Shown one piece after another: positions 23,448 through 57,800 of a stretch of DNA of 64,000 nucleotides. The notes beneath the pieces are model-generated. The model was not told the DNA's origin, searched no databases, and saw only the letters and a list, made by a program, of their open reading frames with translations. Source of the DNA: Alphaproteobacteria bacterium. GTDB taxonomy: Bacteria > Pseudomonadota > Alphaproteobacteria > UBA828. The position numbers and the translations under genes were made by a program. How positions within the stretch are numbered: the stretch's first letter is position 1; every line of letters begins with the position of its first letter. Where the stretch lies: NCBI GenBank assembly GCA_965221125.1, contig CBDCRW010000006.1, forward strand, positions 96,001-160,000, in the 5' to 3' direction.

Positions 23448-23711
23448 TTTTTGCTGGAAAAGCCGAGATTTTCCGAGACAAGGCGATATATACCGAGACA
23501 AAGTGGGATATTCGAGGGCAAAGAGGTGGGATAATCCGAGACAGTCTGGGACGTTCCCGGATGCCGCGCGGCCCATGACCTTGGTGAGAAATGCGGCCTG
23601 GGCCGCGAGCGCCTATGCTGTTTCCGCCCGTCGTGGCGTTCTCGTTGCCGTGCTGCATGGCGCGATGATGGCGCACCCGCCGCCCGCCGTGCACCGCACC
23701 ATGGTCCGGGG
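23448..23711. mobile_element. Gene-less (MITE-like) copy A of a putative novel element with conserved ends and a degenerate 10-bp-phased repeat array
   Basis: Left end TTTTTGCTGGAAAAGCCGAGAT is 19/22 identical to 49234-49255. Right end CGCCGTGCACCGCACCATGGTCCGGGG is 25/27 identical to 50077-50103. Both copies are in the same orientation. Confidence 0.6.
23460..23562. repeat. Degenerate 10-bp-period tandem array (about 10 units, NNNCCGAGAY / NNNGTGGGAT)
   Basis: aagccgagat tttccgagac aaggcgatat ataccgagac aaagtgggat attcgagggc, then a 3-nt shift, then gaggtgggat aatccgagac agtctgggac gttcccggat. Confidence 0.7.
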
Positions 23712-45504: not shown

Positions 45505-45587
45505 GGGCGGAGGGGGAACGCAAGTTGCACCGGCCTTTTCTCCCTCTCCTCCCCACGGGGGAGGAGAGGGCCGGGGAGAGGTGGGGG
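45505..45587. repeat. REP-like palindromic element (CCCTCTCCTCCCC...GGGGAGGAGAGGG family)
   Basis: Perfect 13-bp stem at 45542-45554/45558-45570, followed by CCGGGGAGAGGTGGGGG and preceded by AGGGCGGAGGGGG; closely similar to 57617-57730. Confidence 0.75.
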
Positions 45588-45623
45588 TGCCCGGACCTTC
45601 CCACACGCGCGACAGGAGCCCCC

Positions 45624-49091: not shown

Positions 49092-49245
49092 CGCTATTCC
49101 TGTCCTCAGCGTCCGGCTGTTCTTGGCTCTATGCGCCAGGCGGCGGGCGGGGCGCGCACGGCCGCGCCGCCATCATAGCCCAGCCCGCATTTCCGCGCGA
49201 AGCGGCGGCGTATCTCACTTTCATGCCCGCATTTTTTTGCCCAAA

Positions 49246-49315
49246 AAGCCGAGATAAGCCGAGATAAGCCGAGATAAGCCGAGATAAGCCGAGACAAGCC
49301 GAGACAAGGTGAGAT
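49246..49315. repeat. Tandem 10-bp array, 7 units: (AAGCCGAGAT)x4 (AAGCCGAGAC)x2 AAGGTGAGAT
   Basis: Read directly from the sequence. Confidence 0.95.
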
Positions 49316-49361
49316 GGCGGGGAGGCGCCCAGGGCCGCCCACGCGGAGGGTCCCGCCGGCC

Positions 49362-49985
49362 TCATTCGCCCTCCGCATCTTGCGCCTTCAATCGCCAATA
49401 GGCCTCGGCGACGGCTTCTTCGCCCGCGACCGGATCGTGGATGCCCCAGTGGCCCTCCACGGCGGCGCGGATGTGAGCGACGGCGTCGGGCGAGAGTCCC
49501 TTCTTCTGCTCTTCCGCAGACCTGGGCCAGCCTTCGAGCGGGCCGGCGCCGCGCGCGGCAGGCTTGGGCGCGGCGGCGCTCCTGCCGGCCGCGCCGGCCT
49601 TGTCGGCGTTCTCGATGCGCCCGATGGCGAGCGCGAGCGCGCCGATCATGGCGATGTCGGCCGGCTTCTCGCCCCTCTCGATCGCGTCGGCGGCGCGCTT
49701 GACGAGACTCCGGAGCGTCTCGAGCGCGCGCTCCGCGCTGACCTCCTCGGGGGGCTCCCCGGACCTGGCCTGCCGAGGCTCGCCGGGATCGTCGTCCTCG
49801 GCCGAGCGCAGCAGCGCGGCGCGGTTCCGCTTGACGTAGCGGCCGACGGCCGCGCGCGAGCAGGTGCCGCCATGCGCCCGCATCCGCCGGGTGATCTCGT
49901 CGATGGTGGCGCCCTCGCGGATCGCCAGGTTTACCGCCGCCAGAGCATCCGGCGGCAGGCGCTCGACCCGCGAGCGGTCCGCCAT
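49362..49985 (-). CDS. Phage Mu gp27 / DUF3486-like protein (putative HTH, small-terminase-like), solitary
   Basis: GGAGGG RBS; N-terminal MADRSRVERLPPDALAAVNLAIREGATIDEITRRMRAHGGTCSRAAVGRY and C-terminal KGLSPDAVAHIRAAVEG resemble the DUF3486 pattern (S.I..LP.E...T.DEI......SRSA.GRY...GLS......IR). Confidence 0.68.
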   Translation of the reverse strand: MADRSRVERLPPDALAAVNLAIREGATIDEITRRMRAHGGTCSRAAVGRYVKRNRAALLRSAEDDDPGEPRQARSGEPPEEVSAERALETLRSLVKRAADAIERGEKPADIAMIGALALAIGRIENADKAGAAGRSAAAPKPAARGAGPLEGWPRSAEEQKKGLSPDAVAHIRAAVEGHWGIHDPVAGEEAVAEAYWRLKAQDAEGE

Positions 49986-50215
49986 CAGCCGGCCCTCCGC
50001 GAAGGCGCCGCTCCGCCGCTCTCTCGGCGGCCATCGTCCACACACAGCATCCGCCGAGACTGCCCCCACCAACCCACGCCGTGCACCGCACCAATGTCCG
50101 GGGTCACCCCCCCTCACCTTGCTTGGCCTGCGGCCCATGACGCATACTCGCCGGCCGTGAGCCGGCGCCGGCGCGGCGGCGATGCCGCGCGGCGTCCTCC
50201 GAGCCACTCAGGGAG

Positions 50216-57616: not shown

Positions 57617-57730
57617 ACCCACCTCCCCCTGTCCCCCTCCCCCCGGAGGGCGGAGGGGGGACGCTGTCGCCGATGGAGGAGTCCCCCTCTCCTCCTCCCG
57701 GGGGAGGAGAGGGTCGGGGTGAGGTGGGGG
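57617..57730. repeat. Composite REP-like element (two inverted palindromic units)
   Basis: CCCACCTCCCCCTGTCCCCCTCC...GGAGGGGG followed by CCCTCTCCTCC...GGAGGAGAGGGTCGGGGTGAGGTGGGGG; same family as 45505-45587. Confidence 0.75.
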
Positions 57731-57800
57731 CGCACGCAGGGACTCGTCGACACCGGGCCGCTATACTCCCTCCGTCGGCAACCAGGGGGGACGCTGCGCG

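Follow-up and report, generated by a model that had tools for sequence, protein, structure and literature searches.

The segment examined here belongs to a dispersed family of small cassettes in which a Mor/C-type late promoter is joined to an array of 10-bp-phased repeats and, in a few copies, to a gene for a Mu gp27-like small terminase (TerS). In the best explanation, to which we assign a probability of roughly 0.55 on the strength of sequence comparisons, these cassettes would be the dispersed pac-like sites and the terminase supply of a domesticated, Mu-derived, GTA-like system. Evident in the sequences themselves are the anatomy of the cassettes, the promoter that they have in common with particle genes, their co-occurrence with other parts of that system, and the likeness of their arrays to the left ends of gp27-type phages. 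The DNA analyzed, hereafter the window, is a stretch of 64,000 nucleotides (G000:C6:96001-160000) from a source genome (G000) of 4.58 Mb with 69% GC and 92% completeness, and the comparison genomes of the genus are alphaproteobacterial MAGs. Sequencing-run matches to the window stretch came mainly from sponge metagenomes.

The window cassette is located between a POR/TPP oxidoreductase gene and a solute-binding protein gene, and its content is a leader and gp27 only, with integrase, att sites, and a replication module being absent. Its features, together with those of a second cassette in the window, are as follows.

49232..49247, no strand: T7/A5 tract bordering the array on its outer side, also found in most type-A cassettes.
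49246..49315, plus strand: type-A 10-bp array of seven units, a proposed pac-like site for a gp27 ring by analogy.
49362..49985, minus strand: gene for a small terminase of the Mu gp27/DUF3486 family (207 aa), identified from the ORF and from PF11985 and PHROG matches.
49985..50050, minus strand: 21-codon leader ORF from the inferred +1, the TGA of which overlaps the gp27 ATG.
50057..50062, minus strand: -10-like hexamer CAGTCT, 6 nt upstream of the ATG.
50079..50102, minus strand: Mor/C-type late-promoter block assigned by motif comparison, a near-palindrome centered at -43.5 (formerly called the right end).
23448..23545, plus strand: T/A tract and degenerate mixed A/C array of the second, gene-less cassette, 3' of hslU.
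23656..23710, minus strand: ATG, -10 hexamer, and late-promoter block of the second cassette.

The seven tandem 10-mers described in the first-pass annotation are real, as the units at 49250-49315 (CGAGAT four times, CGAGAC twice, and TGAGAT) follow one another at an exact 10-nt spacing, and TRF returned a period of 10 with 98% matches. From the overlap between the leader TGA and the gp27 ATG we infer translational coupling; the leaders of the other two gp27 copies in G000 are 29 and 37 codons long. The identities reported for the ends of the second copy (19/22 and 25/27) were reproduced. The description of gp27 as solitary is accurate locally but not genome-wide, since there are two further gp27 genes (three in all in G000) and scattered Mu-like genes on contig C7. 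Elsewhere in the window, a 55-nt intergenic repeat is present in two copies with 87% identity (45539-45593 and 57682-57736), and similar repeats flank several cassettes.

The minus-strand DUF3486 gene was likewise borne out, with its product matching PF11985 (Phage_Mu_Gp27) over essentially the full length (E=1e-11, 46 bits against a cut-off of 28, profile positions 1-171 of 173) and PHROG 426 ('terminase small subunit') with E=1.3e-10. The predicted structure comprises three N-terminal helices (HTH) with pLDDT >90, a helical hairpin, and C-terminal helices, so that in the model the protein has the TerS layout of an N-terminal HTH, a central helical domain, and a C-terminal segment. Together with the PF11985 match, this agrees with the TerS-like, HTH-bearing protein that had been proposed. 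Fold searches gave nothing specific, and the N-terminal domain scored a Z of only 5.5-6.2 against homeodomain-like HTH folds. At the other end, the tail (GLS..IR..VEG) is near-invariant across 27 sequences and may bind TerL. By a simple pairwise counting method, dN/dS for gp27 is 0.33-1.38 (15 pairs), the value for the window copy and its G020 orthologue being 1.38, compared with 0.13-0.26 for TerL, 0.05-0.13 for Mor, and 0.09-0.17 for the neighboring oxidoreductase. Only 4 of 115 gp27 matches have an internal stop, and with the frame mostly kept and dN/dS high, the gp27 sequence is either weakly constrained or diversifying. In the phage collection, the window gp27 (P0001) matched a single record, and weakly so, while a homologue with 55% identity (P0044) is labelled Gemmatimonadota by its source.

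What had been taken for the right end of a mobile element is a late promoter common to lysis, portal, and capsid operons, which is the alternative that the first-pass annotation had itself set against its claim. Read on the minus strand, the ATG is exactly 43.5 nt from the palindrome center in 38 of 43 motif copies, and 44.5 nt in one more. Over 36 cassettes, the conserved positions are -52 to -29, -12C (0.89), -11A (0.97), -7T (0.97), and the ATG, while the spacer varies and conservation ends at -52; the palindrome, the -11A/-7T pair, and the ATG keep their exact spacing and reach 92-100% conservation. The window copy has one change within the palindrome core. Judged by its shape, the motif is an activator-dependent sigma-70 promoter with an apparently leaderless start at the +1 ATG, and we take the Mor/C sites of Mu to be centered near -43. 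On contig C7, the genes behind the motif are the DUF5675 lysis cassette, where its ATG is the start codon of the DUF5675 gene, the portal piece, and the protease-capsid-tail operon. Related palindromes are found in a Mu-like prophage of G002 (directly after mor and before the protease gene) and in RcapMu (before lysozyme and protease), and the record of Mu places C-activated promoters at the lysozyme and protease genes. The cassette promoter matches the host lysis, portal, and capsid operons, not the palindrome of the genus prophage, the right half of which differs. Small proteins encoded by gene-less cassettes were discarded as a candidate, as the frames of the short ORFs that follow the ATG show no conservation, and a second inverted motif in relative loci proved to be the palindrome matching itself. 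Among three RNA run assemblies (contigs only), one (X17) has pieces that cover parts of the cassette and come mostly from relatives, and another (X18) has a short piece over the array, none of which demonstrates transcription. No joint skipping the whole cassette was found in the sequencing-run contigs.

Genome-wide, the 16-nt right motif (with one mismatch at most) has 50 matches in G000 as against 2, 3, and 3 in three shuffled genomes, and strict array matches number 18 as against 0, 0, and 0, so neither the motif nor the array family can be put down to chance. Removal of seven motif rows (reverse-strand self-matches or chance) left 43, and removal of three more without an ATG near the expected place left 40, among which the arrays are type A at 14, type B at 21, and uncalled at five (the degenerate hslU copy, an IS-split cassette, and the portal, protease, and lysis promoters). 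This gives about 36 promoter-plus-array cassettes with a median gap of 74 kb, three of them carrying gp27, and the proposed dispersed family with gene-bearing and gene-less members thus holds. Among the strong 10-bp arrays listed for G000, all but three loci are near the motif, these being one with a degenerate motif, the IS-split cassette, and an array that other DNA has cut off. Gene-less cassettes reach 84-93% identity in their closest pairs, apart from a single exact duplication; here, a cassette and its neighboring genes occur twice (G000:C5:2907 and C7:85300) with 100% identity over 570 nt, possibly as an assembly duplication. Promoter-side flanks are genomic repeats for 14 of 36 cassettes and for 41 of 200 intergenic controls. 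We also noticed an IS-like element of 4.6 kb that has the C-terminal domain of Mu transposase (PF09299) and is present in about 20 near-identical copies (e.g., G000:C6:422695-427320), one of which splits a type-B cassette between promoter and array. A replication-orientation bias suggested by the GC-skew signs of G000 was rejected, as G004 gave 12 co-directional and 11 head-on cassettes (counted by hand, with dnaA as origin and one coding match dropped). A scan of the genome collection returned six loci only, in five genus members and as one weak Caulobacter match, and the viral contigs gave a single exact motif match in an unrelated context.

Presence/absence polymorphism, which the first-pass annotation had called for, was found at both window sites, each being filled in some relatives and empty in others. 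At the window site, a cassette or its remains are present in 12 of 18 relatives, as a type-A allele with the gene (G020), a gene-less type-B allele (five), a type-C allele with the gene (three), or promoter remains only (three); four relatives have no cassette and two have another neighbor. The hslU site is filled in nine of 18, including a gp27-bearing cassette in G020, cleanly empty in four (G003, G004, G014, and G019), occupied by other DNA in four, and at a contig edge in one. Wherever both parts are seen, the polarity of the cassettes is identical. Inspection of the cassette edges in G000 and G019 revealed neither a target duplication nor terminal inverted repeats nor a TG..CA end, with the empty sites being too diverged to exclude an old target duplication; the terminal CA is present in true genus prophages. 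B3-like insertions leave a 6-bp duplication, according to an excerpt of PMC8705779. Beyond -52 the flanks are unrelated, and the array-side ends are heterogeneous. Transposon or MITE ends, with their inverted repeats, target duplication, or conserved terminal dinucleotide, were therefore rejected, although the cassettes do share with MITEs a multi-copy distribution over filled and empty sites. The earlier proposal that both motifs bound a unit mobilized in trans is not supported, no phage transposase having been found and the right motif being a promoter. The likeliest routes to new sites would be recombination of packaged DNA and cassette-to-cassette conversion.

As for a partner of the cassettes, G000 has an intact TerL, a module with a repressor and Ner-like, Gam-like, and Mor-like proteins, lysis genes, and a head-tail operon. 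This regulatory module is compact (G000:C7:359663-364296), is followed by the DUF5675 lysis cassette, and has no transposase. At G000:C7:342183-345868 and 424633-438287, TerL is intact, the portal consists of a C-terminal half behind its own promoter, and the protease gene, upstream of the capsid and tail genes, is split. What splits this head protease is a 446-aa transposase-like gene. Searches of the 92%-complete G000 with genus prophage queries failed to turn up phage transposases A and B, Mu F, or gp26, and the PF09299 matches there belong to the 4.6-kb IS-like element. Given the broken portal and protease and the missing F and gp26, particles may not form in G000, and the system may be idle there. 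The Mor-like protein, encoded at G000:C7:359663-359935, matches PHROG 836 ('late transcriptional activator') with E=5.6e-8, with its PF08765 match (E=0.0013) being under the cut-off and missed in one search.

Across the genus, gp27 is found in 18 of 21 genomes (up to 15 matches each), and the motif with its ATG in the same 18 and in none of 16 others; the motif is also absent from 28 other genomes of the order. A TerL orthologue (77-92%) is present in 16 of 21 genus genomes and a Mor-like orthologue (80-99%) in 15 of 21, these conserved genes occurring only among the 18 with motif and gp27, though as the genus genomes are kin, the co-occurrence does not amount to 21 independent tests. All four (gp27, motif, TerL, and Mor-like) are absent from G012, G016, and G017, while G007 (67% complete) and G013 are without TerL and Mor-like orthologues and G001 is without the Mor-like one. 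In G003, gp26, gp27, and TerL form one operon, which is the ancestral order, and G003 excepted, no gp27 adjoins the TerL orthologue in seven TerL loci examined. The partner of the cassettes is likely the conserved Mu-derived system of the genus itself rather than an unspecified phage. G002 has cassettes plus two large Mu-like prophages (L048-L049 and L054-L056), which differ in gene order, have near-identical ends, and in one case carry a perfect 20-bp palindrome at both late promoters.

The array words of the genus are of three types, with a GAGAY core (A), a GGCMC/GGYCC core (B), or a GGGAT core (C), and are found in 4, 9, and 22 of 25 genomes, respectively; G000 has no type-C match, and C-like arrays (1-4 matches each) also occur in five genomes without the system. 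A gp27 tree was built from 61 loci, picked among the better ones of the 115 matches; with two partial rows dropped, it has 62 rows and a prophage outgroup. The motif is upstream of 60 of the 62 gp27 rows, the other two being 3' halves of split genes, and the array calls are 37 C, eight B, two A, and 15 uncalled. The A and B calls fall within one gp27 clade (100/99) and C is on basal branches, with one basal G002 copy outside the A/B clade having a B-like array; since the array type is physically linked to the gp27 clade, this covariation does not show recognition. Through the changes of repeat word, the 10-bp phase is preserved. Following hslU in G009 (L178), we observed a very long type-C array of 41 words in 500 nt, and in G019 (L078-L087) a family of recent expansion whose members have the same late promoter in front of a different, widely spaced repeat without the 10-bp period.

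Similar arrays are found in phages. The left ends of Mu, B3, BcepMu, Aussie, and ThpS-P1 (L106 1-70, L092 1-85, L094 1-85, L167 1-60, and the last 70 nt of L168 being the five regions) each have four phased GGA-core words with a 10-bp period. A phased left-end array is thus seen in 5/5 phages with a PF11985 TerS and in 0/2 with DUF1804 terminases (D3112 and RcapMu), n being small and the p-values (0.002-0.012) optimistic, as the statistic was chosen after the phage ends had been seen. A first periodicity statistic was weak (p 0.09 for Mu and 0.16 for B3). The 'right' record ends of D3112 and ThpS-P1 do not start with TG, and that of ThpS-P1 scored p 0.025. At the Mu left end, GGGAG, TGGAT, GGGAT, and GGGAT stand at positions 33, 43, 53, and 63 after an A7 tract, and no such array is found at the right end; type C, the commonest in the genus, has the GGGAT core of Mu and B3. 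The pac site of Mu is presumably at about bp 32-54, that is, at the left-end array; our literature search found no publication giving Mu pac coordinates. In the genus prophages, phased GGAATC words are present at both ends and could be transposase sites. The pac-like nature ascribed to the arrays is upheld as a best guess, by analogy with the left-end arrays in all five gp27-type phages. PMC4737164 supports a ring of HTHs that binds weakly and cooperatively, showing in the case of SF6 little local sequence specificity, which cautions against assuming word-specific recognition.

In the best explanation, the genus would keep a domesticated Mu/B3-like phage in pieces. These would comprise a single regulatory module that encodes a Mor-like activator, operons for lysis and for head and tail proteins, a portal, and one TerL, but no phage transposase, and the activator would switch on the late genes and every cassette promoter together. 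The few gene-bearing cassettes would supply gp27, whose HTH ring may bind the in-phase repeats, after which TerL would cut just outside the array and package chromosomal DNA by the headful, across the cassette and past it. The approximately 36 arrays would then be fixed packaging starts for a GTA-like particle unable to copy its own genome, with the gene-less cassettes as putative deletion derivatives that use gp27 in trans. Counted against this explanation are that the portal and protease genes are broken in G000, that gene-less copies keep a promoter, that gp27 is weakly constrained, that C-like arrays occur in five genomes without the system, that the G019 promoter family has a non-10-bp repeat, and that the prophage GGAATC words are at both ends.

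The same molecular mechanism could also serve the cassettes themselves. On this account, the main rival but one that we consider unlikely, they are selfish minimal satellites of the host's Mu-derived particles, with their own fast-evolving TerS and private array redirecting TerL, and an over-transmitted cassette would replace empty or rival alleles by recombination through the conserved flanking genes. It would fit the presence of as many as 15 gp27 matches in a genome next to a single conserved TerL, the high gp27 dN/dS with mostly open frames (4/115 with an internal stop), the lineage-specific array types and expansions, and the state of the IOR and hslU sites, where the array may be A, B, or C and the gene present or not, the polarity stays the same, and empty sites are patchily distributed. 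However, the gene-less pairs in G000 (84-93%, with the one exact duplicate maybe an assembly artefact) indicate no recent burst, no integration enzyme or target duplication was found, and as no gp27 is beside TerL outside G003 in the seven loci, it is apparently the cassettes on which the host system depends. Somewhat less doubtful, yet still tentative, is the proposal that the cassettes are the smallest known phage satellites, a 'packaging-drive' composed of a late promoter, a private TerS, and a matching phased address, which may hijack the domesticated Mu-derived GTA, compete via new terminase-address pairs (C, B, and A), and set where the host chromosome is packaged. An absence of any present packaging function is improbable: here, the promoter, gp27, and phage-end fragments would be neutral or decaying debris spread by repeat-mediated recombination, as the broken portal and protease in G000, a gp27 dN/dS near 1 in the G000 lineage, the short ORFs not conserved in frame, and the excess of repeats in promoter-side flanks (14/36 vs 41/200) might suggest. 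Against such decay, the palindrome, -11A/-7T, and ATG are 92-100% conserved while the spacer varies, the 10-bp phase is kept despite the word changes, and the three genomes without TerL and Mor are also those without the motif and gp27.

Two further accounts carry still lower odds. According to the terminase-decoy reading of the first-pass annotation, the activator of an infecting Mu-like phage would fire the cassettes, a variant TerS would poison its terminase, and the arrays would divert packaging to host DNA. Mu-like prophages with a related late palindrome do infect the genus, gp27 evolves fast, and array copies are many, but this reading has been weakened, and we hold it to be quite improbable, because the cassette promoter matches the host operons rather than the prophage palindrome; moreover, the cassettes are accompanied by a conserved, dedicated Mor-like gene, and G002 has both cassettes and two large Mu-like prophages. 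Least probable of all is that the arrays are targets of a ring-forming host protein, for example MraZ, or that the transcripts are regulatory RNAs, either of which would tie late-gene induction to host physiology, e.g., cell division. MraZ is described in an excerpt of PMC12957436 as a ring-shaped oligomer that binds GTG(G/T) boxes at a 10-bp period, the type-B units read AAAGTGG-N3, many type-C units contain GTGG, and C-like arrays are present in genomes without the system. Also in favor of MraZ, the mraZ promoter of G000 (C6, upstream of 904525) carries an array of boxes phased at 10 bp; against it, these boxes differ from the A and B words, to neither of which the promoter has changed. Set against MraZ are also the type-A units, since the commonest of these (six of the seven in the window element) lack a GTGG/ATGG box, and the tracking of gp27-type terminases by left-end arrays across seven phages. 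Unlike MraZ operators, the arrays have phage late promoters upstream of them.

All parts of the cassettes are known, and it is their arrangement that differs from Mu-like phages, known GTAs, MITEs, and PICIs. The packaging module of Mu, B3, and BcepMu is alike in its PF11985 TerS, B3-like TerL family, and 10-bp-period array, but gp27 in these phages lies between gp26 and gp28 and the array at one left end, whereas in the cassettes gp27 is detached, multi-copy, joined directly to the array, and placed behind a late promoter of its own, a transposase and TG..CA ends being absent. The Mu late promoters (Plys, PI, PP, and Pmom; C-activated) and those of RcapMu also have an upstream palindrome, a -10 box, and no canonical -35 before lysis and protease genes; in contrast, the cassette promoter exists in about 40 copies across the chromosome, with an apparently leaderless ATG at +1 and mostly no long gene behind it. 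SaPI/PICI satellites have their own TerS, with pseudo-pac sites and lateral transduction known, and are alike in pairing a small terminase with a packaging site timed by the helper's late program. Unlike these, the cassettes are only 0.3-0.9 kb, carry no integrase, replication genes, or att sites, and have a host-kept system as helper. With its scattered, vertically conserved, domesticated phage genes and no replication module found, the putative particle system recalls the GTAs (RcGTA, DsGTA, CcGTA, and BaGTA), and the TerL and Mor-like orthologues are likewise conserved single-copy particle genes without a replication module, some particle genes being broken in G000. According to PMC11841831, the TerS proteins of known GTAs have no domain for DNA binding, and it appears that GTAs can do without a pac site. 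The cassette system differs in being Mu-derived, with a retained HTH TerS and candidate pac arrays. In a literature search that left out supplements and most subscription papers, we found no publication describing such cassettes.

If true, the best explanation would mean that sponge-associated bacteria have a Mu-derived, GTA-like system that is the opposite of known GTAs, which package host DNA by losing sequence recognition, as here the DNA-binding Mu-type terminase would be kept and its signal scattered. The left-end arrays in five gp27-type phages, and the three natural words paired with different gp27 clades, offer a direct test of Mu gp27 recognition. Should the selfish account be the true one, the cassettes would show how GTA parasites can arise.
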